A program made the position numbers and the translations under genes. A DNA stretch of 64,000 bases from Promethearchaeota archaeon (GTDB taxonomy: Archaea > Asgardarchaeota > Lokiarchaeia > Sigyniarchaeales > SOKP01): positions 1-64,000 of the forward strand of contig JAEOTP010000012.1 in NCBI GenBank assembly GCA_016839765.1. Reading direction: 5' to 3'. Positions within the stretch are counted from its first letter, which is position 1. Each line of letters begins with the position of its first letter. The notes beneath the pieces are model-generated. The model was not told the DNA's origin. It ran no database searches and saw nothing but the letters and a program-made list of their open reading frames with translations. This document shows, piece by piece, positions 147-17,272 of the stretch.

Positions 147-1448
147 TTAATGGGTGGCGCAAGAAATACATGGATCAAAAGCTCTTATAATTTTTTGAAT
201 TTCTTTCTTAACTTTATTTAAATCCTTTTTTTCATAGAGTTTTCGAGCATAATTACTAATCATATCGTTAATAAGTGCTATATTTATTTCTGTTGCTATA
301 AATAATTTAGCTTCTTTAAGAACATTTCTTTTATTAATTCGATAATGATGAATAAGCGATCCTCTAGGTGCTTCCACAACTCCAATACCTTCTCGAGAAA
401 TAATTGATTTAAGATTTGGTAGAGGAATGGTACTTTTTAGAATAGGATCCTCCAAAATTTTTAATGAATTTTGTGATTCAACATACATTTCAATTAAATT
501 TAAAAAGGACGCATATAGAATATTATTTCTCCATTTTTCATCAAAAAGACTTAAATATCCAGAAATTTCATCTGATCCATAACTTTCTACAACCTGATTT
601 CGAGAAATTGGTCCAACTAAATAATTATGATTTTTATCAGTAAAATCAATACCTCTTATTGTAGGATATTTGTCAAAATAATCGATATATTCTTCTAACC
701 TAAAGTCCTGATATTCGGCTAACCCCTTTTTTATGGTTAAAATACCATCATATCTATCATAGGATTTATTATTATTTAATGAAAGGAAATTAACATTTGG
801 GATTATAAAATCCTCTGGTGGGTTAAACTTTGAGAATAAATCAATAAAGTTTTTAATAATCCATTCTAAATTACTTAATACCCTTAAAAAGTATTTCTCA
901 ACAATAATTATCCTTTTCCGTGATGGTCTATAAATAACTCCACCAGGGATAGGTGTAATTGCATGGATTGATCTTCCCCCAAAAAGCTTATCTATATCAT
1001 TCCCGATTTTAATAATTTCATATATGTGAGAGGTTAATTGTGGATTATATTTTATTAAATCATAAATATCGATAGGTTTTGTATAAATTTTAAAGATATT
1101 TAATAGGTCTGGAAAAGATTGGAAAAAATAATGCATACTATGTGATTTTAATAACTCTCCTGCCATCAGGAGCCTTCTTACTAGAACAGATTGTTGATTG
1201 GCTTTTATATTATACATTTCTTCAATGCTTTTACAACTTACAATAGTTTGGGATGCATGGCATAATCCACATATTCTAGAAACAATTTTAGGAACATCTG
1301 ATAATTTTTTACCTATTAAAATATTTTCAAATCCTCTGAAGGCTAAAATTTCAAATTCCACATTCGAAATCTCATCATTTTGTATATAAATTTTTACATT
1401 ACCGTGACCCTCAACCCTTGTACACACATCAATAACTTTTTGCATCAT
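147..1448 (-). CDS. mvhA: Group 3 [NiFe]-hydrogenase large subunit (MvhA/HydA-like), no C-terminal extension
   Basis: TRVEGHG, L1 RICGLCH, GVVEAPRG, and L2 FDPCISCATH followed directly by the stop codon. Confidence 0.88.
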   Translation of the reverse strand: MMQKVIDVCTRVEGHGNVKIYIQNDEISNVEFEILAFRGFENILIGKKLSDVPKIVSRICGLCHASQTIVSCKSIEEMYNIKANQQSVLVRRLLMAGELLKSHSMHYFFQSFPDLLNIFKIYTKPIDIYDLIKYNPQLTSHIYEIIKIGNDIDKLFGGRSIHAITPIPGGVIYRPSRKRIIIVEKYFLRVLSNLEWIIKNFIDLFSKFNPPEDFIIPNVNFLSLNNNKSYDRYDGILTIKKGLAEYQDFRLEEYIDYFDKYPTIRGIDFTDKNHNYLVGPISRNQVVESYGSDEISGYLSLFDEKWRNNILYASFLNLIEMYVESQNSLKILEDPILKSTIPLPNLKSIISREGIGVVEAPRGSLIHHYRINKRNVLKEAKLFIATEINIALINDMISNYARKLYEKKDLNKVKKEIQKIIRAFDPCISCATH

Positions 1449-1449
1449 A

Positions 1450-2208
1450 TCACCATCGTATTTTTGGTTTCGAGAATCTATAAAAGATTCCTTTGTATTT
1501 TGTTAAATCTTTAGAGAGATTAATAAGACTTAAGAAATTTATCAAATTTGAGGTATAATCCTTAGATACTGGTCCTAAACATCCTTCACAGGGTATTCCC
1601 TGTTCAATACATATATGATCGCAGCCCTCCCTAGTTATTGGTCCTAAGCATAAAATTCCATTATCTAAAAAGCAATTAGATTTCTCATTAAAAATTGTTA
1701 ACTCATCATTTGATGGATTTAATTTGTTAACTGGTTTTTCAAAAGGAATATTATTATTTCCTCTTAGAGGGCATGATGAGCATAGATTTTTTTCCGATAA
1801 TTTTATTTCTTTATTTTCTATTAATCTTATTAAACAATTTCCTATTAGTTTTAAAGGAGGAGGACAACCAGGAATTATACCATCGATTTGGACGACATCT
1901 GATATTGCACCTGCTTTTTTCTTTTCAGATAAACTTAAAATTCCCCCAAATGCTGCACAAGTACCTAAAGCATATACTTTTTTTGCATTATTTCTAATAT
2001 CTTTTAATAGTTCAATTTGTGAATCCATCGAAATACAACCTTCTATTAAAGCAATATCGCCTTCTTCAATTTTATTCTCATCAGAGATAAAGGGAAAGTA
2101 AGAAAGTTTTATTCTTTCTAAAAACTGAGGAAATATATCACTTGAGATTAATTTAGATATACATCCACTACAGGATGTAAGTGATGCTATTAAGATTTTA
2201 AGTTTCAA
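1450..2208 (-). CDS. mvhG: [NiFe]-hydrogenase small subunit (MvhG/HydD-like)
   Basis: SCSGC, GTCAAFGG, PGCPP, CLGPITREGC, PCEGC; lies between the MvhD-containing gene and the large subunit. Confidence 0.85.
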   Translation of the reverse strand: MKLKILIASLTSCSGCISKLISSDIFPQFLERIKLSYFPFISDENKIEEGDIALIEGCISMDSQIELLKDIRNNAKKVYALGTCAAFGGILSLSEKKKAGAISDVVQIDGIIPGCPPPLKLIGNCLIRLIENKEIKLSEKNLCSSCPLRGNNNIPFEKPVNKLNPSNDELTIFNEKSNCFLDNGILCLGPITREGCDHICIEQGIPCEGCLGPVSKDYTSNLINFLSLINLSKDLTKYKGIFYRFSKPKIRW

Positions 2209-4744
2209 ATCTAATCTCCTCCGTTAATACGTTATAAAATTTATTTATTGCATTTGCAAATTTGGCACCTTCAACCGCATTCAGATTTTCTACTATTATC
2301 CTATTACTTAATCGGGGACCAAATACTTTCTTTAACAGGTTTACTTTTTTCTGAACTTTTTGAATTCCATCGATATATCTGCACGCATCTTTTCTACATC
2401 CAATAACCATTACACCATCAAATCCACACTCAAATGATTTAAGGATAAATTCAGTATCAATACGCCCGGTGCATGGTACTTTAATTATAAACACATTGGG
2501 ATGATAAAATAATTTCTTTAATCCCGCATCATCTGCAGCAGCATAACCACAGGATTTACAGCAAAAAGCAATAATCATTGGCTTTTTATTAAATTTAGAA
2601 AAAATTTCTATTGTTTTAAGTATTTTTTTGGAAGTATCAATATTTAAATCAATAGCATTTGTAGGACACACACTTACACATGATCCACAGCCTTTACATT
2701 TAAATTTATCGATATTTATTTTATCTCCCCCGATTATTATGGCATTATATGGACAAGATACTACGCATAATCCGCACAACCCACACTTTTCTTCATTTAT
2801 TTTAATTCCTGTAAATTCTGATACTAAATAGTCATTTGAAAGAAGATAGATTATTTCTAAAGCTGTTTGATTTGTTGTAGAAATTGTAGATTTATAATTT
2901 AATGGCCCAAAAATTGTACCAACGCCATAAATACCAGATGCTAAAGTTTCTCTACTCATGAAACCATTATCGTCTAAAGAAAAGTCCATGTATTTTCGAA
3001 GACTTTTTAAATCTTTGTTGGGAATATACTTAAGGTTTAATACTATCAAATCACTTAGAAATTCAGTATCATCAGCAACAACATAGTTTATATCTTTATT
3101 ACTTTTAACAGAAATATGATTAGCATAAATAAATCTAGGGTTAGTTGATCTTAATAAAATCTGATCCTTATCATTTAATTTACTCAAATCATAAAAAACA
3201 TTAACTTTACATTTAGCATTTCTTATTTTAATATCCTCAATATATTTTTGTGCTAAAATTTCAGAGTAATCTGAGATTAATTTTGAAGGTCCGACCTCTT
3301 GAACAATAGAAACCGAATTAACTGGTTTCTTATCCGATATTCTTAATAATTTCCCTTCTGTAATACCATCAGAAGATAATATACGCTCAAATTCAGGTGA
3401 AGTAATAATATTATTTTGAGGATTATAATGGTAATCCTTTAAGTTATCACTAAAATCTGCCCCGATAGCTATAACTTTTACACCAACCTTAATTCGGACT
3501 TTTTCTGGTTTTTCATTTAAATTTATTGCATTATTAATACAAGCTCGTTCACAAATCCTGCAATCGAGACAATCTTCAATATCTTCGTGATCAATTAAAG
3601 GGATATATGGATATGAATTCTGAAAAGGGATATAAATAACTTTTCGATATGACAGACCAAAATCGTATTGATTCTTTTTCTCCTTACCACAAACATTAAC
3701 GCATTGTTTACAACCGGTACATTTCTTTTCATCTATATATCGAGGTTTTTTAATTAATTCAATTGTAAAATTTCCCACTTCTCCTGAGATTGTTTCAATT
3801 TCGCTATTTGTAAATATATTGATATTCTTTTCTTTGACTATTTCTCCAATCAATTCTGAAGTGAAACAAATAGAACAATCACCCATCTCAGAGATACGGT
3901 GCCATCTAGCTACTTTACCCCCTAATGTTGGTGATTTTTCAATAAGATATACTTTTATTCCTGCTTTTGATAAATTCAGTGCTAAAGTCATACCTGCAAT
4001 ACCACCCCCTAATATTGCACAAGCTTTCTCAACTTCAACCGTTTTAATTTGAACTTCCTTTTGAAGCTTTACACGTTCAATTCCTGCTTCTATTAATAAT
4101 TCTACTTTTTTTAGAATTAGATCCGCACTAAATTTTTCGAGATTTGAATCATGAACCCAGCAGCATTGCTCCCTAATATTAGCAATTTCTATATTTGTAT
4201 GTTCAATCACATCTTTAAAGATACGTTCAAAAATATGTTGGTGTGTTTTAGGAGAACAAGCTGCAATTACTACTTTATTTAGAAAATTTTGTTTTGCCCA
4301 AGATGTGATTTTATTCAAATTCTTTTCTTGACATAAATTATCAAATATCTTGACAGAAACAACATCATTTAACTTTGCAATATACTTCTCTAATATTTCA
4401 ATATTAATAACATTAGAAATTTCAGTATTACAATCACAGATTATTACTCCTATACGATTTATTATATTTCCTCTTTTATCCAAATATTCTAATTCTTCGC
4501 CTGATAAAATACGTTTGTTTAAACTTATTATATTTAATACTCGTTTACCATCTTCTGTCAAAAAATAAGATTTTTTATCTTTGCTGATCAATGACCCAAG
4601 CTTTTTTAAGTGGAAATTTAATTGCCCCGTTTGGGCTAAACCCAATTTTTCCATTAAATCGGTATAAGGAATGAATCCCTCTCTTTCCAAAAGTAAGAGA
4701 ATCTTTCTACGAAAAGGATGTGATAATATTGAGTAAATATTCAT
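2198..4744 (-). CDS. Fusion of ArsR-like winged HTH, HdrA-like FAD/Fe-S protein (degenerate central region) and MvhD [2Fe-2S] domain
   Basis: N-terminal LSHPFRRKILLLL..GQLNFHLKKL..YFLTEDG; HdrA motifs IICDC, AACSPKTH, NIREQCCWVH, GGGIAG, DCSIC and ferredoxin motifs; C-terminal AFCCKSCGYAAAD..PCTGRID..GCRKDACRY. Confidence 0.85.
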   Translation of the reverse strand: MNIYSILSHPFRRKILLLLEREGFIPYTDLMEKLGLAQTGQLNFHLKKLGSLISKDKKSYFLTEDGKRVLNIISLNKRILSGEELEYLDKRGNIINRIGVIICDCNTEISNVINIEILEKYIAKLNDVVSVKIFDNLCQEKNLNKITSWAKQNFLNKVVIAACSPKTHQHIFERIFKDVIEHTNIEIANIREQCCWVHDSNLEKFSADLILKKVELLIEAGIERVKLQKEVQIKTVEVEKACAILGGGIAGMTLALNLSKAGIKVYLIEKSPTLGGKVARWHRISEMGDCSICFTSELIGEIVKEKNINIFTNSEIETISGEVGNFTIELIKKPRYIDEKKCTGCKQCVNVCGKEKKNQYDFGLSYRKVIYIPFQNSYPYIPLIDHEDIEDCLDCRICERACINNAINLNEKPEKVRIKVGVKVIAIGADFSDNLKDYHYNPQNNIITSPEFERILSSDGITEGKLLRISDKKPVNSVSIVQEVGPSKLISDYSEILAQKYIEDIKIRNAKCKVNVFYDLSKLNDKDQILLRSTNPRFIYANHISVKSNKDINYVVADDTEFLSDLIVLNLKYIPNKDLKSLRKYMDFSLDDNGFMSRETLASGIYGVGTIFGPLNYKSTISTTNQTALEIIYLLSNDYLVSEFTGIKINEEKCGLCGLCVVSCPYNAIIIGGDKINIDKFKCKGCGSCVSVCPTNAIDLNIDTSKKILKTIEIFSKFNKKPMIIAFCCKSCGYAAADDAGLKKLFYHPNVFIIKVPCTGRIDTEFILKSFECGFDGVMVIGCRKDACRYIDGIQKVQKKVNLLKKVFGPRLSNRIIVENLNAVEGAKFANAINKFYNVLTEEIRFET

Positions 4745-5077: not shown

Positions 5078-5707
5078 GTGTATAACTTAATGGAAGTTTT
5101 GGAATTTAAACCAATAAGAGACAAAAAAATCGTAGTATATATGTCATCTAAAGAGAATGCTAAATATTTCCAAAATACTGATAACTCTAAACTTATAGAA
5201 TTTTTAAAAAAGAAAAATATTGACTTTGTCACTGTTGATTTTCAAGTTGATATAAAAGAATTCAGAACAACACCATTTGCTCAAACATTAAATGAACTAG
5301 ACATACCATATTTTCAATTAGATATTCCAGATTATGCTATGGGGTATCTATATCAGGAAATTATTGAAAAACAACAATTTCAAAATGAATTATTTGAAGA
5401 ATATGAAAATATGGAAGAAAAAGAATCGTTTAAAGGGCTTAGTTTAAAAAATTGGATAGATATGTTGGGGGAGGAAATTCAGGAAAGAGAAATTTTTCTT
5501 AGTTTAAAATTAAGACCTCAATGGATTGTTAAAAAAATGTTAGATTTAGCATTATCTTACAAGAAAGATACTGTGACATTTGTTCATTTTGTTAAAGAAG
5601 ATATCTGTGAAGATATTTGTCCGCAAGTAGTTGAAAATTTAAGAGAATTAAAAGTTAAAGTTATATCTTATAATAAAAAACATACAATTCAAAATATAAT
5701 ATTTTAA
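5078..5707 (+). CDS. Hypothetical protein, paralog of 5731..6456
   Basis: 209-aa ORF with SD GAGG; shares EVLExKP and K(L/V)RxxW segments with the next ORF. Confidence 0.75.
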   Translation: MYNLMEVLEFKPIRDKKIVVYMSSKENAKYFQNTDNSKLIEFLKKKNIDFVTVDFQVDIKEFRTTPFAQTLNELDIPYFQLDIPDYAMGYLYQEIIEKQQFQNELFEEYENMEEKESFKGLSLKNWIDMLGEEIQEREIFLSLKLRPQWIVKKMLDLALSYKKDTVTFVHFVKEDICEDICPQVVENLRELKVKVISYNKKHTIQNIIF

Positions 5708-5730
5708 TAAAAAAAGAGAGGCGATAATAA

Positions 5731-6456
5731 ATGCCAGAAGTATTAGAATTAAAACCTTTAAAAAATAAGAATTTAAAGTTAATTTTAATTGAGAGTGAGT
5801 TTCCTATCGACTGGTGGTTTGAAGTTCCCAAGGATTATAAAGAAGATCTTTTTTGGAATCTTCATTTAATTTCTAAGGAATACCTTCAATTAATTAATTC
5901 GTTAATAAAAAAATATAAACCGAATTTTATTTTAGAAGAAAGACCAAATTCATGGAGTGAAGAACTGAATGCAAATGATCCTTTAAAAATGCTTATTAAA
6001 AAACGTGGAATTCCGTTTAAACATACTGATATTTCAGAAAATGCTGAATTATATCTCTCTTCAGCGTTAGATGAACACAGGAGCATGGTTAAGAATCTCG
6101 AAAAAAGGATTAATGGTATAATGAAAGAATTTAAGGAAAAACCAGAAAATGATGAATTTTTTCAACGTTTAGTATTATGGAAAGAATATTTACAATTAGA
6201 TTACAATATTCAAGAAGATGAAGTCAGATATAAGGTTCGAGAAGCATGGATGATGATGAACATTTTGAAGTTTGCGAAAGAATTTGAAGGAAAGAAATTG
6301 AAATGTTTATTCATATGCGATCCGCGACACTTTAACGGTCTTGAGAAACTTTCATTGGATCTTGGTATTGAAACCGAACAAGTGAAAATAAGTAGAAGGA
6401 TTAAAACTGAAGGAGTCGGAGAAATATTTGAAAAAGATTTAGAAATTGATATTTAA
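5731..6456 (+). CDS. Hypothetical protein, paralog of 5078..5707
   Basis: 241-aa ORF, SD GAGG, operon-like spacing. Confidence 0.78.
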   Translation: MPEVLELKPLKNKNLKLILIESEFPIDWWFEVPKDYKEDLFWNLHLISKEYLQLINSLIKKYKPNFILEERPNSWSEELNANDPLKMLIKKRGIPFKHTDISENAELYLSSALDEHRSMVKNLEKRINGIMKEFKEKPENDEFFQRLVLWKEYLQLDYNIQEDEVRYKVREAWMMMNILKFAKEFEGKKLKCLFICDPRHFNGLEKLSLDLGIETEQVKISRRIKTEGVGEIFEKDLEIDI

Positions 6457-6505
6457 TAGCTAATTTTTATTAAATTTTTAAAAATAAAAAAAAGAGCTGA
6501 TGTAA

Positions 6506-7501
6506 ATGGTAGAAAGAGAACTTGAAAATATTCTTGGAAAAAAGTCAATAATAGAATTAACACCAATTATTATTAAAAAGAAAGATACCTCCGATAAAAT
6601 TTGTTATTTTTTTGATACTGATGATAATGCATCTCCATTCGATATCAATATGGCATATGATGCCGGTTTTGATGTTGTAATCCCTTATAATAATATAAAA
6701 GCTGATAAAGTAACTCAATTAGTCCAAGATGCAATGTTTTCGAGAAAAGCAAACGCTCCAACAGTTTATTTTATTGGTGGTTCTGATGTAGAAGAAGCTG
6801 ACAAGATTGCTGAGATTGTATTAGATTCGCTTATACCTCCTTTTGAATCTCCTGTAATCATAGATCCAAGAGGAGCTCATACAACCGCAGCAGCAATGGT
6901 TGCTAAGACTATAGAAGTTACTCGAAAGCTAAGATGGCATGATATCTATGGTAAAAAAGCAGTCATTTTAGGAGGTACAGGTCCAGTTGGACAAATTGTT
7001 GCAATTTTAGCTGCAAAGCTTAATTGTACTGCTGTGATGACATCCCGACGAGCGGACTATGTCAAGACTTTAGCAAAGAACTTAACTGAAAAAGCAGGAG
7101 AAGGAGCAACCGAAATTGTTGGTGCTGTAGGGATTACTGACGAGCAAAAATATAGGTTTCTTAAAGAAGCTGATATTATTTGGTCTGTAGCTAAAGCAGG
7201 AGTGCAAATGGTTTCAAAAGAACTATTGGAAAAATTACCTAAGAATAAGATCATAGTTGATATCAATTTAGTACCTCCCTACGGAATTGAGGGATTAAAA
7301 CCAAAATTTGATGGTGATGAAATAATTCCAGGAATTTATGGAATTGGAGCTTTAGGTGTCGGGAGATTGAAATACAAGACTGAGAGTAATATTTTTAAAG
7401 AAGCATCAGAGAGCAAAGGTAAAAAAATCTTTAATTATAACAACGCGTTCAAACTTGCATGTAGAATTCTTTTCGGCGAAGAAATTAAGATTACAGTTTA
7501 A
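6506..7501 (+). CDS. NAD(P)-dependent methylene-H4MPT/H4F dehydrogenase family (MtdA/MtdB-like)
   Basis: SPFDINMAYDAGFD, DPRGAHTTAAA, GGTGPVG, DINLVPPYGIEG, GIGALGVGRLKY. Confidence 0.82.
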   Translation: MVERELENILGKKSIIELTPIIIKKKDTSDKICYFFDTDDNASPFDINMAYDAGFDVVIPYNNIKADKVTQLVQDAMFSRKANAPTVYFIGGSDVEEADKIAEIVLDSLIPPFESPVIIDPRGAHTTAAAMVAKTIEVTRKLRWHDIYGKKAVILGGTGPVGQIVAILAAKLNCTAVMTSRRADYVKTLAKNLTEKAGEGATEIVGAVGITDEQKYRFLKEADIIWSVAKAGVQMVSKELLEKLPKNKIIVDINLVPPYGIEGLKPKFDGDEIIPGIYGIGALGVGRLKYKTESNIFKEASESKGKKIFNYNNAFKLACRILFGEEIKITV

Positions 7502-7588
7502 ATAAAACAGAAAACAATGTAGAATCAGAATTTCTAATCTAATTTTTTTAAAATTGTATTATTATAAATAAAGACCGAGGTTTCAAGC

Positions 7589-8476
7589 ATGGGCTATAAA
7601 ATTTTGATGAAAAAAGAATTAGGAAGTAGTGGAACATTATTTGAAATAGAATTAGCTACGCCTTTAATTGCTAAAAAGGCGCGTGCTGGAAATTTCATTT
7701 TAATCAGAATAAATGAAAAAGGAGAGAGGATTCCTTTAACTATTGCTGACTATAATCGAAAAAAAGGAACATTAACGATTGTTTTTCAGGTTATTGGTAA
7801 AACTACAAAATTATTATCAAAATTAGAAGAAGGAAATTTCCTTCTTGATGTTGTTGGGCCTTTAGGAAATGAAATTCATATTAAAAAATTTGATTATCCT
7901 GTGGTAATTATTGGAGGTGGAGTTGGTATTGCTCCTTGTTACCCTCAAGCAAAGGAATTGAAAAAAGTAGGAAACAAGATAATCGCAATTATTGGCGCAA
8001 GGAGTAGCAATTTATTATTTTGGAGAGAAAAAATGGATAAAGTTAGTGATGAGTTAATAATTTGTACAGATGATGGAACCGAAGGGAAAAAAAGCGTAGT
8101 TACTGAACCTCTTAAGGAACTTTTAAAGAGAGAACCTTTAAGTCTAGTTATTTCTATAGGTCCCTTAATTATGATGAAATTTGTAGCTCTAACGACAAAT
8201 GGGTATGAAGGATTACCTAAAGTAAAAACAATGGTTTCTCTAAATACTATTATGATCGATGGTACTGGCATGTGTGGAGGATGCCGATTTTCCACAATAG
8301 ATGGAAAAATATATTTTGCATGTGTGGATGGTCCTGACGTTGATGGTCATATGGTAGATTTTGATAATCTTATAAAGCGTGCTAAAAGATTTACGGCTCA
8401 AGAAAAGGAGAGCATTGAACTCTATGAACATGAATGTGGGGCTGTAGAAAAACTCAAAATGGGAGGTTCATTTTAA
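7589..8476 (+). CDS. nfnA: Nfn small subunit (NfnA/SudB; FAD and [2Fe-2S])
   Basis: GERIPLTIAD, GPLG, GGGVGIAP, MIDGTGMCGGCR, FACVDGP. Confidence 0.9.
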   Translation: MGYKILMKKELGSSGTLFEIELATPLIAKKARAGNFILIRINEKGERIPLTIADYNRKKGTLTIVFQVIGKTTKLLSKLEEGNFLLDVVGPLGNEIHIKKFDYPVVIIGGGVGIAPCYPQAKELKKVGNKIIAIIGARSSNLLFWREKMDKVSDELIICTDDGTEGKKSVVTEPLKELLKREPLSLVISIGPLIMMKFVALTTNGYEGLPKVKTMVSLNTIMIDGTGMCGGCRFSTIDGKIYFACVDGPDVDGHMVDFDNLIKRAKRFTAQEKESIELYEHECGAVEKLKMGGSF

Positions 8477-8477
8477 A

Positions 8478-11264
8478 ATGGAGAATCAAACAACCATAAT
8501 TAAAATTTTATTAGATAATAAACAGAAGATTTTGAAAGCAGCAAAATTCGATGAACCAGAGTTTGATAGCTTAATCTCCAAACTAAATAAAGCTGAAGAG
8601 CAAAGAAAAAAACTATCACAGAAAATTAAGGATATTAGAGAACTTAATATAGAAAAATTAAGTCATGAATTAGGAATTTCGCGTTATAAATTAACATTAA
8701 AGATCGATTACTTAAAAGAATTAGGATTTTTAAAAGCTGTCGGAAAGGAATCACGATTTTTCCAATATTTATTGGATGAATATAGATCTAAGGGTATTTT
8801 TCCTAACGTATCTATTATTAAAGAAAAGAACCTATGTTGCAATTGTGGATTATGCGTTTCTGTATGTCCTTTAAATGCTGTTAAGTATTCTGAGGATACT
8901 TTTGAAGTCATTGAGGAAGATTGTATCAATTGTGGATTATGTTTTGCATGTTGTCCGAGATCATTTTTTCCAATAACTCTCAAATTTATTAAAGAGAATG
9001 AAGATATAAAAACTAAATTTTCTGATCAAATAAATTATTATCGAGAAGTCTATACTGCCCAGACAAACGATAATCAAATAATTGAAGTTGCTCAAGATGG
9101 AGGTATTGTAACAAGCTTATTAAAGACTGCTTTTCAAGTAAATATGATTGATTGTGCTTTGGCTGTTGGATTAGCAAATAAACCACACAAACCAGCACCT
9201 ATCTTCGTTGAAAATGTAGATGATTTATTAAAAACGGCTGGGACAAAATATAGTAATACACCTTCTTTAAAAATTTTACATGAATCTAAAAAATATAAAG
9301 ATATTGCGATAGTGGGGACACCTTGTATGATGGAGGGGCTTAAAAAAATATCCATCTATCCATTTAACGAACCTTTTTATGATAATATCGCTATAAAAAT
9401 TGGATTATTTTGTATGGAATCATTTAATTACTCACAAATTTTAGAGCTGTTAAAAAATGAATTTCAAAAACCTGCTGATGATATTATTAAAATGAATATA
9501 GATAAAGGTAGATTTCTTGTTTATAGTAAAGATGGTACTTCGTTAGATGTTCCTTTAAAAAAAGTCAAAAAGTATGGAAGACTGGGATGTTTTTTCTGTG
9601 ATGATTTGACTGCTGAACAAGCAGATATATCAGTAGGGTCTATTGGTTCTGAACCGGGATGGTCAACTGTTATAATTAGGACTCAAAAAGGTGCTGATCT
9701 ATTTCAAAAAGCATTAGATTTAAAAATAATCGAAAAGAAAGAAATTAAGGAAGATGATAAAAGATTTGTTTATTTAGAACGGATAGCTAAGTCAAAAAAG
9801 AAAACATATAAGGAAGGGCGTAGGCCCAAAATGATTGAACAAGATCCTAAAGAAAGAATAAAAAATTTTGATGAGGTTCCTTTAGGATTAACTGAAGAAA
9901 TGGTGAAATTAGAAGCTCAAAGATGTTTACAATGTGGGAGGCCTTTATGCATTAAAGGGTGTCCAGTAAACATTAATATCCCTGAATTTATTAGATTAAT
10001 CAAATTAGGTAAAAATGCTGATGCATTACATCTAATTAAAAGAAATAATTTATTACCAGCGATTTGTGGAAGAGTTTGTCCTCAAGAAACCCAATGTGAA
10101 GAAAAATGCCTATTAAATTCACTTGGAGAACCTATTTCAATCGGTTATTTAGAAAGGTTTCTTGCTGACTGGGAAAGAAAAAATAAGCTTAAAGAATGTC
10201 CTGACTGTCAACCCTCCAATAATATTAAAGTGGCTGTTATTGGATCTGGACCTGCTGGGTTAACATGTGCGGGCGATCTTGCAATGAAAGGTTATAATGT
10301 TACTCTTTTTGAAGCTTTTCATGCAGGTGGAGGAGTATTGGTCTATGGAATACCTGAATTTAGATTGCCTAAGGAAATTGTTAAAGATGAGATTAAAACT
10401 TTGAAAATGCTTGGTGTTAAGATAAATTATAATACTATTATTGGTAAAATTTTAACTCTAGAAGATTTAAAAGAAGAGGGTTTTAAGGCATTTTTCATAG
10501 GTGTTGGAGCAGGGCTTCCTATGTTCCTAAGAATTCCTGGATTAAGTTTGAATGGTGTACTAACAGCAAATGAATTTCTAACAAGATCTAATTTGATGAA
10601 AGCATATAGATTTCCAGAATATGATACACCAATAAATGTTGGAAAGATAGTTACTGTTATCGGTGGAGGGAATGTTGCTTTAGATTCTGCCCGAACCGCT
10701 CTAAGATTGGGCTCTGATAGAGTTATAATCGTTTATAGACGATCTGAAAAAGAAATGCCAGCAAGACTTGAAGAATACCATCATGCAAAAGAAGAGGGTG
10801 TTGAATTTAAATTTTTAACAAATCCAACACGAATCATTGGTGATGAGAATGATAATGCTATAAAAATGGAGTGTCTTAAAATGAAATTAGGAGAACCAGA
10901 TGATTCAGGAAGGCGAAGACCTATCCCAATTAAGGATTCAGAATTTATAATTGAAACTGATACAATAATACTTGCAATTGGAGCTTTAGCAAATCCCGTT
11001 CTTACAAAATCAATCCCTGATTTAAAATTAAACAAATGGGGTTATATCGAAACTGACACGGGCGGAAGGACGAGTATAGAAGGAGTATATGCTGGAGGAG
11101 ATATAGTAACTGGAAGTGCTACAGTAATCTCTGCTATGGGTGCAGGAAGAATAGCCTCAGCGGCTATAGATAAATATCTTAGAAATAAATTTCTGAGTAA
11201 GGTAGGTTCTATTGAAGTTGAAATAATGAAAATTAAAACAATTAAGAAAGAGCAGATAAAATAA
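8478..11264 (+). CDS. nfnB: Fusion of an HTH-like N-terminus, 2x[4Fe-4S] ferredoxin, FrhB/FdhB (F420-binding) domain and Nfn large subunit (NfnB/SudA/GltD-like)
   Basis: AQDGGIVTSLL, AGTKY, VGTPC, IGLFCMESF and DISVGSIGS (FrhB); RCLQC..GCPV, CGRVCPQETQC, GSGPAGL, GGGNVALD and AGGDIVTG (NfnB). Confidence 0.88.
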   Translation: MENQTTIIKILLDNKQKILKAAKFDEPEFDSLISKLNKAEEQRKKLSQKIKDIRELNIEKLSHELGISRYKLTLKIDYLKELGFLKAVGKESRFFQYLLDEYRSKGIFPNVSIIKEKNLCCNCGLCVSVCPLNAVKYSEDTFEVIEEDCINCGLCFACCPRSFFPITLKFIKENEDIKTKFSDQINYYREVYTAQTNDNQIIEVAQDGGIVTSLLKTAFQVNMIDCALAVGLANKPHKPAPIFVENVDDLLKTAGTKYSNTPSLKILHESKKYKDIAIVGTPCMMEGLKKISIYPFNEPFYDNIAIKIGLFCMESFNYSQILELLKNEFQKPADDIIKMNIDKGRFLVYSKDGTSLDVPLKKVKKYGRLGCFFCDDLTAEQADISVGSIGSEPGWSTVIIRTQKGADLFQKALDLKIIEKKEIKEDDKRFVYLERIAKSKKKTYKEGRRPKMIEQDPKERIKNFDEVPLGLTEEMVKLEAQRCLQCGRPLCIKGCPVNINIPEFIRLIKLGKNADALHLIKRNNLLPAICGRVCPQETQCEEKCLLNSLGEPISIGYLERFLADWERKNKLKECPDCQPSNNIKVAVIGSGPAGLTCAGDLAMKGYNVTLFEAFHAGGGVLVYGIPEFRLPKEIVKDEIKTLKMLGVKINYNTIIGKILTLEDLKEEGFKAFFIGVGAGLPMFLRIPGLSLNGVLTANEFLTRSNLMKAYRFPEYDTPINVGKIVTVIGGGNVALDSARTALRLGSDRVIIVYRRSEKEMPARLEEYHHAKEEGVEFKFLTNPTRIIGDENDNAIKMECLKMKLGEPDDSGRRRPIPIKDSEFIIETDTIILAIGALANPVLTKSIPDLKLNKWGYIETDTGGRTSIEGVYAGGDIVTGSATVISAMGAGRIASAAIDKYLRNKFLSKVGSIEVEIMKIKTIKKEQIK

Positions 11265-11270
11265 GAATTT

Positions 11271-13532
11271 ATGAGGATTATAGATATGGAATCAGATCAA
11301 AAATTAAGAATTAAAGATGCTTTTAAAGAGGATGCTGGAAGAGGAATTGTTAGAATAGATCCGGATATAATAAAAAAATTAAAGTTAAAAGTAGGTGATG
11401 TTATAAGAATTTCTCATCCTTTGGTGAATAAAAAAACTGTTGCATTATTATCATCAGGAAGAATTGAAGATAATGGAACCCAAGTAATTAGAATGGATCC
11501 TTCTTTAAGGAGAAATTTAAATGCTTCTATTGATGATTTTGTAGAGATAAAAAAAATTGAAGTAGATTTAGCTACGAGTATAAGTTTTGCTGGATTAAAT
11601 AGCTCATTGATCCCCCGGGATCCTCAAGCTTTGGCAAGAAAATTAGAAAATCGGGTCATCACTCTGGGAGACACTCTGAGTTTTTACGCAATGGGTCATA
11701 GAATTGATATAGCTGTTGTTAATTATACTCCAAAGACAGAGGCCGTTAAAATTTCTCTTAATACAAATATAAAGTTTACAGAAAAACCTCAAAATACTAT
11801 TGAAACACGAAAAGTCATAGTTAAACATGAAAAAATAAGTGATATTGAAGAGAAATTACAAGAAATACGTGAAAAAGTAACTTATGAGGATATTGGTGGA
11901 TTAGAAGCATTAATTCAAAAGATTCGTGAAATTATTGAACTTCCAATAAGACATCCGGAACTTTTTGAGAGAATAGGAATTGAACCACCTAATGGAGTTT
12001 TATTATATGGTCCCCCAGGTACAGGAAAAACATTATTAGCAAAAGCAGTTGCCTCAGAAACAGATGCAAATTTTATTAGTATTAGTGGTCCTGAAATAAT
12101 GAGTAAGTTTTTTGGGCAGAGTGAAGAAAATCTCAGAAAATTATTTGAAGAGGCTAAAGAGAATTCTCCTTCGATAATTTTTCTGGATGAATTAGATTCT
12201 CTTGCACCAAAAAGGGATGAAGGGAAAAATCAAGTTGAATCAAGGGTTGTTGCTCAATTATTATCACTTATGGATGGATTAAAAGGGAGAGGAGAGGTAA
12301 TTGTAATAGGAGCAACTAATAAAGTAAATAATATTGATATTGCATTACGAAGACCCGGAAGATTTGATAGAGAAATTGAAATAAAGGTCCCAGATAGTAA
12401 TGGACGTTTTGAAATATTATTAATTCATACCAGAGGAATGCCTTTAGGCGAAGATGTGAATTTAAGATTGATAGCTGAAAAAACTCACGGGTTTGTTGGA
12501 GCAGACATAAAATCTCTATGCAAAGAAGCTGCATTCCTTGCTATTCGTGAAATAATTCCTGAAATTGATTTAGATGAACCAGTTCCGGAAGTAGTTTTAA
12601 ATCAATTAAAAATAAAAATGAGCCACTTTATTGAAGCTCTAACTAACATTGAGCCATCAGCCTTAAGAGAAGTGTTAATAACTCATCCCTCAGAAACATG
12701 GGATGATGTTGGGGGATTGAGGGAAGCAAAACAAGAATTAAAAGAAATAGTTGAATGGCCCTTAAAATATCCAGAGTTTTATAAATATATGAAATCGAGA
12801 CCTCCTAATGGTATTCTTATATATGGTCTACCTGGTACTGGAAAAACTTTACTTGCTAAAGCTCTTGCTCACGAAACTGAGATTAATTTTATCTCAGTGA
12901 AAGGTCCCGAATTCTTATCTAAATGGGTAGGAGAAAGTGCTAAAGCTGTTCGAGAGGCTTTCCGGAAAGCACGATCCACGGCACCATGTATTATTTTCTT
13001 TGATGAGATAGACGCTATCGCATCTAGACGTTCAGAATCTTCTGATTCAAGGGTAACAGATCAGATTGTAGCACAACTTCTAACTGAAATGGATGGTTTG
13101 GAAGAATTGAAAGATGTAGTGTTGATTGCAGCTACTAATAGACCTGATTTGCTCGATCCTGCTTTACTAAGATCAGGGAGATTTGGTAGACATATTGAAA
13201 TTCCTCTCCCAGATAAAAATACTCGTATAAATATATTCAAAATTCATCTAAAAGATCGTCCTATTAATGATAAAATTGATATAGAATCATTAGCTCAAGA
13301 ATTAGAAGGATATAGTGGTGCTGATATTGAAGCAGTATGTGAAGAAGCTACAATTTTAGCAATTCGAAAAGGAGTTTTCCATGTTGATATTGATGCATCA
13401 AATCCTAATTCTTATTCTAAAATTAAAATTTCCCAAGAAGATTTTGAAAAAGCTATAGCAAAAATCAAAAAAGTTGCAGATAAAGCAAATAAATCCTACA
13501 GGGAAGTTTCCTACAGTGAAATATATAGATAA
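11271..13532 (+). CDS. cdc48: CDC48/VCP family AAA+ ATPase
   Basis: N-domain plus two AAA modules ([16 protein letters not shown]); C-terminal IYR fits an HbYX motif. Confidence 0.95.
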
Positions 13533-13643: not shown

Positions 13644-14801
13644 TTATGTTTCATCATTTGTCAATATCGCTGAAGTAGTTTTCCATGATTTCAATTTGTT
13701 TATCATATTTTGCTCTGTTCTTGTTATTTTTGATTGAGAGTATTGCGTAATTTTTTCTTTCATTTTATTTTTAACGGTGTTATCCATTCTTAAACACTTA
13801 ATTATCCCTGTTTTAATTGCTCTATCAACTATATCCTTTCCTTTTTTAGTTCGAGTTATTACAGTTGTAAATTTATCTTCGGAACCTAATCCTCCAAAAG
13901 AAATATCAGCATAAATGTTAGTAAAATCTTTGCAAACCCCACAAGCGGGGCGCATATAATCAGTTAAACTTTCAAAAGGCACATGAATCTTTTTTTGGGG
14001 CGCTTTATGATTTTTTAATTCAATAATTAAATTTTCCTTAATATTTATTCTCTGAATATTTTTGAATTTAATTTTAAATTGTTTCTCAAATTGTGTCAAT
14101 TTTGTTCTATCAAAGAAAAAATTCTCATAGCAAAATAAACCAAGACAAACTTCTATGTTTTCTGATGGTATTATCCCTAAGCTTTGCATACATCTAATTG
14201 TGTAAATTTGGCAGGGAGTTCCTACAAATGCTAACTTATTGAATTTATAGTGTCTTAATTTAGGTAATGAACTTATATATGTGTGAAATTTCTGCACGGT
14301 ATCTAGTTGTGGAGAAATATCCAATTTTGTACCTGATGCATTGATTAAATCTTGTTTAGTTTTTGCGATAGTTGCCTCTCTAGAGAAAGGTGATTTTGTT
14401 TTTGCTACAATTGCCCCATTAATAATTTTTTTTTCTATTAAGTAATTTATAATTGTGTTTACAACGCCTCCATCTGTCCCATATTTTAAAAATTCTTTAT
14501 CCATAGATTGACATGAATAAATATTATCTACAAAACCCAAAGGCATTAATGAAAAATCTGAAAAATTAAAAGTTTCATTAAGATCTTCATCTAAAACATG
14601 TGTCTGTGGACAAATAAAATAGCATATACTACACTCAAGGCATTTTTCCTTGTTTATGTATTCTGGAGGTGAATTAAGATCCTTAAAGCCAATTACTTCG
14701 TTTTCTATTGAGTTACAAAAACTCACACAGCCACCACATTGTTGACAAATACCGAGTTCATGAACCTCTTTTATTAAATCTTGAAAAACTTTATTTTTCA
14801 T
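13644..14801 (-). CDS. Coenzyme F420 hydrogenase/dehydrogenase beta subunit family (FrhB/FdhB) with ferredoxin N-terminus
   Basis: CQQCGGC, CLECSIC, GTDGGVV, VGTPCQ, LGLFCYENF, CGVCKDF, DISFGGLGS. Confidence 0.88.
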   Translation of the reverse strand: MKNKVFQDLIKEVHELGICQQCGGCVSFCNSIENEVIGFKDLNSPPEYINKEKCLECSICYFICPQTHVLDEDLNETFNFSDFSLMPLGFVDNIYSCQSMDKEFLKYGTDGGVVNTIINYLIEKKIINGAIVAKTKSPFSREATIAKTKQDLINASGTKLDISPQLDTVQKFHTYISSLPKLRHYKFNKLAFVGTPCQIYTIRCMQSLGIIPSENIEVCLGLFCYENFFFDRTKLTQFEKQFKIKFKNIQRINIKENLIIELKNHKAPQKKIHVPFESLTDYMRPACGVCKDFTNIYADISFGGLGSEDKFTTVITRTKKGKDIVDRAIKTGIIKCLRMDNTVKNKMKEKITQYSQSKITRTEQNMINKLKSWKTTSAILTNDET

Positions 14802-14874
14802 TTTTAAAAATCACCAATTTTTATTATCAATTTCAAAAATTATTATAACTCTTTTGATTAAATTAATGATCCCT

Positions 14875-14904
14875 ATGATAAATATTGTTGTCATAATATA
14901 TAAA
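14875..14904 (-). promoter_or_regulatory. TATA box plus imperfect palindrome upstream of the FrhB-family gene
   Basis: ATGATAAATATTGTTGTCATAATATATAAA; matches 4821-4850. Confidence 0.45.
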
Positions 14905-15043
14905 TGTGATCTTTTTCTTATATTGCATGCCCATATATAGTCAATTGAATGTTAAATAATCCTAGATCCCATCATGAAATCGATAGATCTACTGCTGGAG
15001 AACGATCAGGCAAAGATCAGATCCGTACATTTGATTAACGAAA

Positions 15044-15061
15044 TGACAAAAATTTTTGTCA
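15044..15061. promoter_or_regulatory. Perfect 18-bp palindrome, candidate operator in the frhB/hdrA divergent region
   Basis: TGACAAAAATTTTTGTCA. Confidence 0.4.
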
Positions 15062-15235
15062 AATTTATTAAAATTTCTCTTATCATATTTTTTAAATTTA
15101 ATTTAAACCATCTTTTTATTGGAATAGGAGATTAAAAAACATTTTTTGCTTTTAGCAAATTTTTTGTTCTTTCAATTTCATAAATTTGCTAAATTACCTA
15201 TCACTAGTTGGTGATGTTTTAAATAGGTGAATTAA

Positions 15236-17272
15236 ATGTCTGAAATACAGACCAAAGTGAGAATCGGAGTTTATATATGTAGATGAGGAGTTAATATTAG
15301 TGCTTCAATCGATTGTAATCTTATTAGAGATTATGTTGAAGCACTACCAAACGTTTTTGTTGCTAAAGTAAATGATTTTACTTGTAGTGATCCAGGACAA
15401 AATATTATCAAAAACGATATTTTAGAATTAGACTTAAATCGGGTAGTTGTTGCAGCTTGTACACCAAAAATTCATGAATCCACCTACCGATTAGTTTTAG
15501 CTCAAGCAGGATTAAGCCCTTATTACTTCCAAATGGTTAATCTTCGCGAACATTGCTCATTTACTTACTCCAGAAATAAGAGAAGCATTACTGAAAAAGC
15601 TATAAGGTTAGTGCAAGCAGGGATAAATCGTGCCAGAGAATTAGAAATTATACCTTATAAAAAGATATCAGTAGAAAAATCGGTATTAATTATCGGTGCT
15701 GGTATTGCAGGGATGAATGCTGCATTAGACTTAGCAAATCATGGAATAAATGCAAATTTAGTCGAAAAGGAAGCCACAATTGGCGGAAAAATGGCACAAT
15801 TAGATCGAATATATCCTACAGACGATTGTGCTATATGAGTTCTAGCGCCTATTATGGTTAGTGCTTCAAAACATCCAAATATAAAATTATTTACCTATAG
15901 TGAAGTTATTAAATTCGAGGGCATCCCAGGAAATTATAATGTTAAAATACACAAGAAACCTCGTTTTATTAATGAAAATAAGTGTACTGGTTGTGGATTA
16001 TGTACGACTAAATGTCCAATAAAAGTACCTAACGAATTTAACAGAGGTATTGGGGAACAAAACGCGATTTACATACCTTTTCCTCAAGCAGTGCCCAGAA
16101 TTGCTCTAATTGATAAGAGTGTATGTATAGAATGTAAAAATTGTCAAAAATGTTGTCCCACAGAAGCTATTGAATTAGATCAAACCTCAGAATATATCGA
16201 TTTAAAAGTTGGTGCGGTAATTATTGCCACAGGTTGGGATGAATATCCAATTATGAAAAAAAATGAATATAAATATGGTATTTATCCAGATGTTATTACT
16301 CAAATAGAGTTAGAACGTATGTTAAGTCCAGTTGGACCAACCGGTGGTCAAGTGTATAGAATTTCTGATGGAAAAATCCCCAAAACAGTAGCTATGATTC
16401 AATGTGTGGGTTCAAGATCCTTAAAAGGGAATCCCTATTGCTCAGGAGTATGTTGTAATGTTGCACTTAAAAATGCTCAATTGTTAAAGCAAGAATATCC
16501 AGATATAGAAATTGTTATCTTTTATATAGACATGCGGACATGGGATAAAGGCAATGAAGAATATTATAGAAAAGCGAGAAAAGCGGGAATAATGATGATT
16601 CGTGGAAAAGTAGGAGACATTCGAGAAGATACTAGCATAAAGAAAATAAAACTTACAGCTTCTTCAACTTTAACCAATGATTTCATTACCATGAATACCG
16701 ATTTAGTTGTATTATCTACAGGTATGGTCCCTTCTAAAAAAGCGGCACAAATTATTGAGACATTAGGTATAGCTAAAGATATGAATGGGTTTTTAAGTGA
16801 AGTTCATGGATGCCTAAAACCTCAAGAGACAAATAATTTAGGTATTTATATATGCGGCTGTGCTACTGGACCTAAAAATATCCCTTATTCAGTATCAACT
16901 GCATTAGCTGCAGCAAGTAAAGCATCTATTTTGCTTTCTAAAGATACAATAACTCAAGAATTAATCATCGTTGAAGTAAATGAAAATCTATGTATGGGTT
17001 GCCATAGATGTGAAAAACTATGTAATTTTAAGGCAATAAAAATTAATGGAGAGAATATAGCTGAAGTAGACGACTTAAAATGTAAAGGTTGCGGAGTTTG
17101 TGTTACATCATGTCCCGCTCGAGCAATTGACCTTAAGTATTACAGAGATAAACAAATTATTGAAGAGATAAAAGGGATTTGTAGTACTGAACTTGAATAT
17201 AAGGAAGAATTTATTGAATCTATTGAACTTATTTGGAAAAAGATTGAAGCTTTAGCTCCTTATCAAACATAA
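15236..17272 (+). CDS. hdrA: Heterodisulfide reductase subunit A, probable selenoprotein with two Sec (U17, U201), 678 aa
   Basis: SD AGGTGA then ATG at 15236. One frame reads MSEIQTKVRIGVYICR-TGA(15284)-GVNI...YPTDDCAI-TGA(15836)-VLAPIMVS. Both TGAs occupy Cys positions of HdrA motifs (CxCG, DCxxC). ORF-track pieces 15533..15838 and 15854..17272 are in this frame. Confidence 0.9.

Follow-up and report, generated by a model that had tools for sequence, protein, structure and literature searches.

A FrhB-NfnB fusion of Lokiarchaeia and its possible role as an F420-linked form of the bifurcating transhydrogenase NfnAB

In the bifurcating enzymes covered by reviews, ferredoxin or flavodoxin accepts the low-potential electron. 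For NfnAB, ferredoxin is predicted to dock near the distal cluster of NfnB (PMC6405883), and in the carbon monoxide dehydrogenase (CODH) and Fwd of Candidatus Ethanoperedens a ferredoxin+FrhB module has been shown biochemically to replace ferredoxin (PMC11493965). On contig JAEOTP010000012.1 of a Promethearchaeota archaeon of the class Lokiarchaeia (assembly GCA_016839765.1; positions 1 to 64,000, hereafter the window), the gene for NfnA is followed, after a gap of 1 bp, by a gene whose 928-aa product joins a ferredoxin-FrhB module to NfnB. This FrhB-NfnB fusion is real, conserved and previously undescribed in the literature searched, in which no paper on the fusion, on its assay or on lokiarchaeal Nfn with cofactor F420 was found, most subscription papers being out of reach. 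On balance, the two proteins are predicted to form an NfnAB-type bifurcating enzyme whose low-potential arm ends in the tethered ferredoxin-FrhB module, with F420 as acceptor. The features concerned are:

8478..11264, + strand: FrhB-NfnB fusion, whole gene, 928 aa, assigned from domain and structure matches
7589..8476, + strand: NfnA (NfnS), with a-FAD, an NAD(H) site and an Asp(Cys)3 [2Fe-2S] cluster (NF004862, 360 bits, cut-off 220)
8478..8807, + strand: N-terminal helical segment of the fusion resembling a helix-turn-helix (HTH), residues 1-110, with helices 26-53, 58-65 and 69-82 in the AlphaFold2 (AF2) model
8814..8963, + strand: 2x[4Fe-4S] ferredoxin domain, Cys120/123/126/130 and 149/152/155/159, all eight Cys invariant
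9033..9809, + strand: FrhB/FpoF F420-oxidoreductase domain, with FAD and one [4Fe-4S] cluster on Cys283/312/371/374 (FrhB 3ZFS_C, E 1e-51)
9816..11189, + strand: NfnB (NfnL), with two [4Fe-4S] clusters, the bifurcating FAD (b-FAD) and an NADP(H) site; residues 447-904 match Thermotoga maritima NfnB (4YLF_B, E 3e-168)
10119..10121, + strand: Ser548 of the fusion, Lys/Arg in unfused NfnB and mostly lost in fusions

The first-pass annotation had described the long chain as an HTH-like segment, a ferredoxin, a full FrhB and a full NfnB, preceded by NfnA and by a methylene-tetrahydromethanopterin (H4MPT) dehydrogenase. All three open reading frames (928, 295 and 331 aa, respectively) lie on the + strand where they had been placed. 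Fer4 covers residues 113-162 of the fusion, FrhB_N 191-267 (E 9e-20) and FrhB_C 274-425 (E 3e-43), and the NfnB part carries Fer4_20 (460-570) and Pyr_redox_2 (584-890); residues 114-430 match the ferredoxin+F420-reductase subunit 8RIU_B (E 3e-53). The AF2 model of the whole chain (pLDDT 84.9, pTM 0.79) aligns with NfnL of Pyrococcus furiosus (5JCA_L; Z 45.2, root-mean-square deviation (rmsd) 2.5, 456 aligned), 8RIU_B (Z 41.6, rmsd 3.3, 354 aligned), FwdI 8RJA_E (Z 37.1) and Fsr 7NPA (Z 34.2). NfnA, the ferredoxin and both full domains are thereby confirmed, whereas the N-terminal segment is no more than HTH-like, with no significant match in Pfam, Foldseek or VIA and only weak fold matches (in Foldseek no better than E 1.5, with some 44 residues superposed on Lrp/AsnC at rmsd 1.4; in VIA, Z <= 5.8). 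The database label of glutamate synthase is wrong: T. maritima NfnB is a far better match to the NfnB half than GltD is (565 versus 275 bits), and the partner of the fusion is NfnA rather than a GltB large subunit.

The cofactor sites of both halves are intact. The 20 cluster cysteines, eight in the ferredoxin, four in FrhB and eight in NfnB, are invariant among 56 fusions, as is Glu559 (T. maritima Glu117), a ligand of the proximal NfnB cluster, among 59. Arg629 (T. maritima Arg187), the presumed b-FAD N5 arginine, and the NADP-binding Arg754/755 pair are likewise invariant in fusions. In NfnA, the motifs ERxPxT and DGTGMCGxCR-x10-CV are intact and are the same at fused and unfused loci. The FrhB half conserves the cluster residues Cys104/134/192/195 and the FAD loops of FrhB (QDGG, 71-77 and 131-138); the QDGG loop reads QDGG in 80/92 sequences and QNGG in 8. 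At the F420-cleft residues S209/V210 of FrhB, the fusion has an invariant Ser388 and Ile389, and the IGKGK turn appears as I-D/N-K-G-R/K at 341-345 (loop and cleft residues as named in PMC3930138 and PMC3591093). The non-bifurcating StnC has Lys at the Glu-ligand position (PMC10482914). Membership of the Stn or Nfn-Bfu groups can be set aside, since there is no nuoE/F at the window locus and residue 559 is Glu, not Lys. NfnA and the 928-aa chain carry every feature of NfnAB and of FrhB that can be judged by sequence, with the ferredoxin partner as a possible difference. Additionally, the NfnB inter-domain linker contains Cys574-x-x-Cys577 (10197-10208), found in about 95% of fusions and most lokiarchaeal stand-alone NfnB and absent from T. 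maritima and P. furiosus NfnB, which may be an extra metal or disulfide site.

The survey of such fusions that the first-pass annotation had proposed revealed a conserved architecture. About 90 full-length clusters, 57-96% identical, share it; those with names are labelled Promethearchaeota or Lokiarchaeota, apart from one labelled Hermodarchaeota. An assembly chimera is ruled out, as a search with the FrhB/NfnB junction yields 105 clusters that cover it at 361 bits or more, and the next match, to one half only, has 179 bits. Among 151 genomes of the class, 58 encode the fusion, all within the family of the window genome (58/127 sampled) and spread over seven genera; these include a few copies cut by contig ends, one that is split and one with an internal deletion. 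In most other genomes of the class NfnB stands alone, frequently at this same guaA-nfnA-nfnB-gdh site, and outside the family a phylum-wide sample contained the N-terminal half solely as free proteins, about 370-510 aa long. A probable second fusion copy in the window genome is truncated where contig C85 ends, and at one locus (L051:6361-11871) a single nfnA is followed by two fusion copies in tandem.

An nfnA gene is found no more than 3.5 kb from 59/63 fused loci, and two further loci have a NuoG-NfnA fusion. Within the same distance, glutamate dehydrogenase (GDH) adjoins 19/63 fused and 31/57 unfused loci. At L080:4602-10696 and L083:5486-10255, a nuoE-like gene, a nuoF-like gene and a NuoG/Fdh-like-NfnA fusion precede NfnB; the same operon type occurs at L123, L125-L129, L131-L134, L136, L140 and L145. 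In L080 and L083 this NfnB is the FrhB fusion, which brings a Bfu-like core together with Nfn and an F420 module. The NuoG-fused NfnA has altered NAD-site motifs (GGCYG, LEARN).

Phylogenies indicate how the module was gained and lost. All fused modules fall into a single clade (SH-aLRT 98), and their nearest free relatives (8 sampled) are HTH-ferredoxin-FrhB proteins of hdr clusters; a hidden Markov model (HMM) of the HTH-like segment also matches a paralogue in the window genome, on contig C43 (E 6e-11). As far as the sequences tell, the fusion had a single origin in an FrhB paralogue of an hdr cluster, and the segment was inherited with it, possibly for docking. In the NfnB tree, 57 fusions share a group (SH-aLRT 96) with seven stand-alone proteins, 483-491 aa long, and a tree in which the fusions alone are monophyletic is rejected (p-AU 0.003). 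Because several of the seven start with remnants of the linker helix or first residues of the fusion, they are regarded as products of secondary loss, and the trees indicate that the module was lost at least twice. The split fusion at L085:66-2840, in two open reading frames, and the internal deletion in FrhB at L089:7451-10039 are possible intermediates of module loss.

This ancestry bears on a different function, in which NfnAB would attach to HdrA/MvhD through the HTH-like segment and the ferredoxin domain, and electrons would be shared among Nfn, F420, Hdr and possibly free ferredoxin. The closest free relatives of the module sit in hdrA-frhB-hdrBC-mvhD clusters, the segment is kept in nearly all fusions with a mean column identity of 53%, and hdrA, frhB and hydrogenase genes flank the window locus. 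However, hdr genes do not recur next to the fusion from locus to locus, fusion genomes retain free Hdr-type FrhB paralogues, and the HMM for the segment has no match on the MvhD proteins of the window genome, so that docking of this kind seems unlikely.

An indication of a low-potential arm that ends in the tethered module comes from a single NfnB position. The equivalent of Ser548 is Lys104 in T. maritima NfnB and Lys115 in P. furiosus, and it follows Cys544, presumably a ligand of the distal, ferredoxin-facing cluster. A basic residue is present in all 50 unfused lokiarchaeal NfnB, in 4/59 fusions and again in all seven revertants; beyond Lokiarchaeia, it is found in 53/64 NfnB loci, compared to 6/105 fusion clusters. 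No other NfnB column shows this pattern of a basic residue lost and regained. Its presumed location beside the distal cluster would suggest a role of 548 in ferredoxin docking. The loss of Lys548 in fusions, with the position basic in all revertants, fits an altered partner at this surface. Of the 13 columns diagnostic of fusions, 11 lie in the Fe-S domain, and many changed to hydrophobic residues. In the structure alignment, FrhB chains extend to model residues 546-560, which suggests that this NfnB loop lies against the FrhB module; a complex prediction with the two halves as separate chains scored 0.01 and is not used as evidence.

Several points weigh against this interpretation. Position 548 offers only four independent contrasts, of which three agree, none oppose and one is unchanged (p 0.25), and some deep-branching fusions retain Lys/Arg548. 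The Fe-S fraction of diagnostic columns is 0.85 in fusions, and control clades range from 0.18 to 0.70. Non-bifurcating StnC also retains the Arg at the b-FAD position (PMC10482914), and some FrhB domains, as in Thermococcus, do not use F420 (PMC13333549). Furthermore, Fsr, which has the same N-terminal order of ferredoxin, FrhB and partner, needs dimerisation for electron transfer (PMC10229431); the wire of the fusion may therefore be inter-subunit. The first-pass annotation had proposed an Nfn hard-wired to F420, and the intact FrhB and NfnB sites, the F420 genes of the host, the lack of Fno over cut-off and the 548 pattern all agree with it. What we infer is that electrons pass along the wire, be it inside a single chain or between the subunits of a dimer, that F420 is the substrate, and in which direction and for what physiological role the enzyme works.

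Part of the same evidence could be read as a module that is tethered and not wired, with NfnAB and a FpoF-like ferredoxin:F420 oxidoreductase working side by side through free ferredoxin, or as an FrhB domain that acts on a substrate other than F420. The losses of the module left NfnB intact, a basic 548 persists in some fusions, and FrhB folds without F420 use exist in Thermococcus Frh, with the model also matching plant HCAR (Z 28.8). Such an arrangement is nonetheless quite unlikely, given the changed partner surface that the loss and return of Lys548 would fit, the conserved F420-cleft motifs and a host family that makes F420.

In the favoured scheme, with electrons passing through the tethered module to F420, NADPH would reduce the b-FAD of NfnB. 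One electron would then travel through the [2Fe-2S] cluster of NfnA to a-FAD and NAD+, while the other would cross both clusters of NfnB, then the 2x[4Fe-4S] ferredoxin of the module and the single cluster of FrhB, and so reach the FAD of FrhB, from which a hydride would pass to F420. The net reaction would be 2 NADPH + NAD+ + F420 -> 2 NADP+ + NADH + F420H2. At standard potentials this reaction is computed to lie close to equilibrium (+4 to +8 kJ/mol); under in-vivo-like potentials (NADP -370/-380, NAD -280 mV) it would yield -21 to -23 kJ/mol, the latter value from E' of -380 mV for NADP, -280 mV for NAD and -360 mV for F420 (PMC9304861), and F420 could be held at -460 to -480 mV. Oxidation of NADPH is the most likely direction, because the reverse would have to climb from F420H2 into clusters that lie at -513 and -718 mV in P. 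furiosus NfnI. NADPH from GDH, and in some lineages including the window genome also from an NADP-type Mtd, would be reoxidised, and the F420 pool would stay strongly reduced for F420-dependent Mtd and Hdr. It is a more tentative proposition, still short of an even chance, that the enzyme is a ferredoxin-free bifurcating transhydrogenase which couples three two-electron carriers (NADPH, NADH and F420H2) and drives F420 to about -460 to -480 mV. Replacement of a missing Fno by a non-bifurcating F420H2:NADP+ transhydrogenase, with NfnA optional, would suit the close potentials of F420 and NADP and the lack of Fno over cut-off in the window genome and all 151 genomes of the class, but is improbable, as NfnA stays adjacent and intact, the Glu ligand is kept where non-bifurcating StnC/NfnA-Bfu have Lys, entry of F420H2 electrons into clusters of the P. 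furiosus potentials is steeply uphill, and weak full-length Fno-like genes exist in one genus (g2).

The host context is consistent with F420 use. In the window genome, CofD, CofE, CofG, F420-dependent Mtd and Mch score over cut-off and FolD is present. CofD is encoded in 118/126 genomes of the fusion-bearing family compared to 2/13 in the sister family, which has unfused NfnB only. The lack of Fno over cut-off is not a trait peculiar to fusion genomes, as it extends to all genomes sampled from the class. Because the window genome (96% complete) has no Fhs match and its Mer homologues fall below cut-off, a complete H4MPT methyl branch is not supported.

Upstream of nfnA lie two further genes of note:

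6506..7501, + strand: predicted NAD(P)-dependent methylene-H4MPT (or -tetrahydrofolate) dehydrogenase of the MtdA/B family, 331 aa (Mpt_N, E 2e-25)
5731..6456, + strand: Promethearchaeota-specific 241-aa protein, present in many relatives as the N-terminal domain of a fused Mtd of about 556 aa

The 331-aa protein matches MtdA (6TLK/1LU9, E 1e-33), with an Mpt_N domain and a Rossmann fold, and carries Ser-Arg-Arg after the Rossmann beta-2 strand, a motif that predicts an NADP-type subtype with a preference for NADP. Mtd-like genes occur in 105/151 genomes of the class. The phylogeny suggested by the first-pass annotation, built from lokiarchaeal sequences, separates a Ser-Arg-Arg (NADP-type) clade from a mostly acidic, probably NAD-type group. 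An Mtd gene accompanies 14/63 fused loci at a distance of up to 3.5 kb and none of the 57 unfused ones, all 13 full-length Nfn-adjacent Mtds are NADP-type, and an NADP-type Mtd is encoded in 22/44 fusion genomes compared to 3/26 unfused genomes sampled, counts in which kin are not independent. A role in serving C1-pterin metabolism, as first envisaged, is therefore partly upheld by the Mtd neighbours, whose association with fused loci is not random, but too narrow, since Mtd adjoins only 14 of the fused loci and GDH 19, and half of the fusion genomes sampled lack an NADP-type Mtd. Mtd is thus rejected as a general partner of the fusion and is a plausible source of NADPH in some lineages, including the window genome, rather than the reason for the fusion. 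At L151-L153, L160 and L196 there are two or three neighbouring Mtd paralogues, one of the NADP type and the rest of the other subtype.

The mtd-nfnA-fusion genes lie in a co-directional run from 5078 to 13532, which ends with cdc48. Genes 5078-5707 and 5731-6456 are a paralogue-like, Promethearchaeota-specific pair; the 241-aa product of the second has a weak TraB/GumN-like lead (score 0.84). Divergent from this run, on the - strand at 147-4744, are a gene for a wHTH-HdrA-MvhD fusion (848 aa) and genes for the small and large subunits of a group-3-like [NiFe] hydrogenase. On the other side, 13644-17272 contains, on the - strand, another ferredoxin-FrhB gene, which has 66% identity to a paralogue in the C43 hdr cluster and is divergent from a split hdrA (15533-15838, 15854-17272). 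A sigma-70 promoter scan of the region, with a model unsuited to archaea, gave hits at chance level. Elsewhere in the window genome (C58:21546-24014), an 822-aa ferredoxin-FrhB protein interrupted by a GltD/NfnB-like domain is encoded in an hdr/mvhD cluster. In genus g1, a fusion of about 917 aa with HdrC-like, GltD-like and CCG domains is encoded upstream of nfnA (L063:13154-15907, L070:3309-6071), often with an aldehyde:ferredoxin oxidoreductase gene.

If the module is wired to NfnB, both arms of the enzyme end in hydride carriers, and Nfn coupling could be tested with a low-potential sink of only about -360 mV. The fused and reverted proteins that occur in nature, about 70-75% identical as pairs, lend themselves to a direct comparison, and the gain and loss of the module, accompanied by reversion at 548, would mark the ferredoxin docking site of Nfn. 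For Lokiarchaeia that make F420 and have no clear Fno, the wiring would also explain how electrons from amino-acid catabolism reach F420 and the H4MPT branch, a matter of relevance to Asgard metabolism, and an NADPH-driven generator of F420H2 could be useful in biocatalysis.

Among described systems, NfnAB (NfnI or NfnSL; T. maritima 4YLF, P. furiosus 5JCA) has the same two-gene layout and all cofactor ligands, including the Glu-ligated proximal cluster, the N5 Arg and the NADP Arg pair, at 55-56% NfnB identity. The fusion differs by 446 extra N-terminal residues, three more clusters, a third FAD and the replaced Lys104/Lys115 equivalent, and none of the Nfn patterns A-D in the 2019 survey (PMC6405883) corresponds to it. 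The MtdA of Methylorubrum extorquens (1LU9, 6TLK) shares the fold, the N-terminal Mpt_N and basic residues at the 2'-phosphate position with the Mtd of the window, which is archaeal and distant (120 bits), with relatives often fused to the 241-aa domain. ANME-1 HdrA-NfnB insertions (10.1101/2021.09.25.461819) likewise recruit NfnB into an archaeal F420/H4MPT redox network; there, unlike in the fusion, NfnB is inserted in HdrA and no FrhB is fused. F420-Bfu, predicted in Methanosaetaceae (PMC9304861), is also a bifurcating enzyme with an F420 domain. However, its BfuBC core is unrelated, and F420 is a mid-potential third substrate beside NAD and ferredoxin, whereas in the fusion F420 would replace ferredoxin. 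The 2x[4Fe-4S] and FrhB module is common to the zeta protein of the acetyl-CoA decarbonylase/synthase (8RIU_B) and FwdI (8RJA_E) of Candidatus Ethanoperedens, FpoF/FqoF and the N-terminal half of Fsr (7NPA). In comparison to these F420-reductase modules, that of the fusion has an extra HTH-like N-terminus, and its partner is a bifurcating flavoenzyme rather than CODH, Fwd or sulfite reductase.

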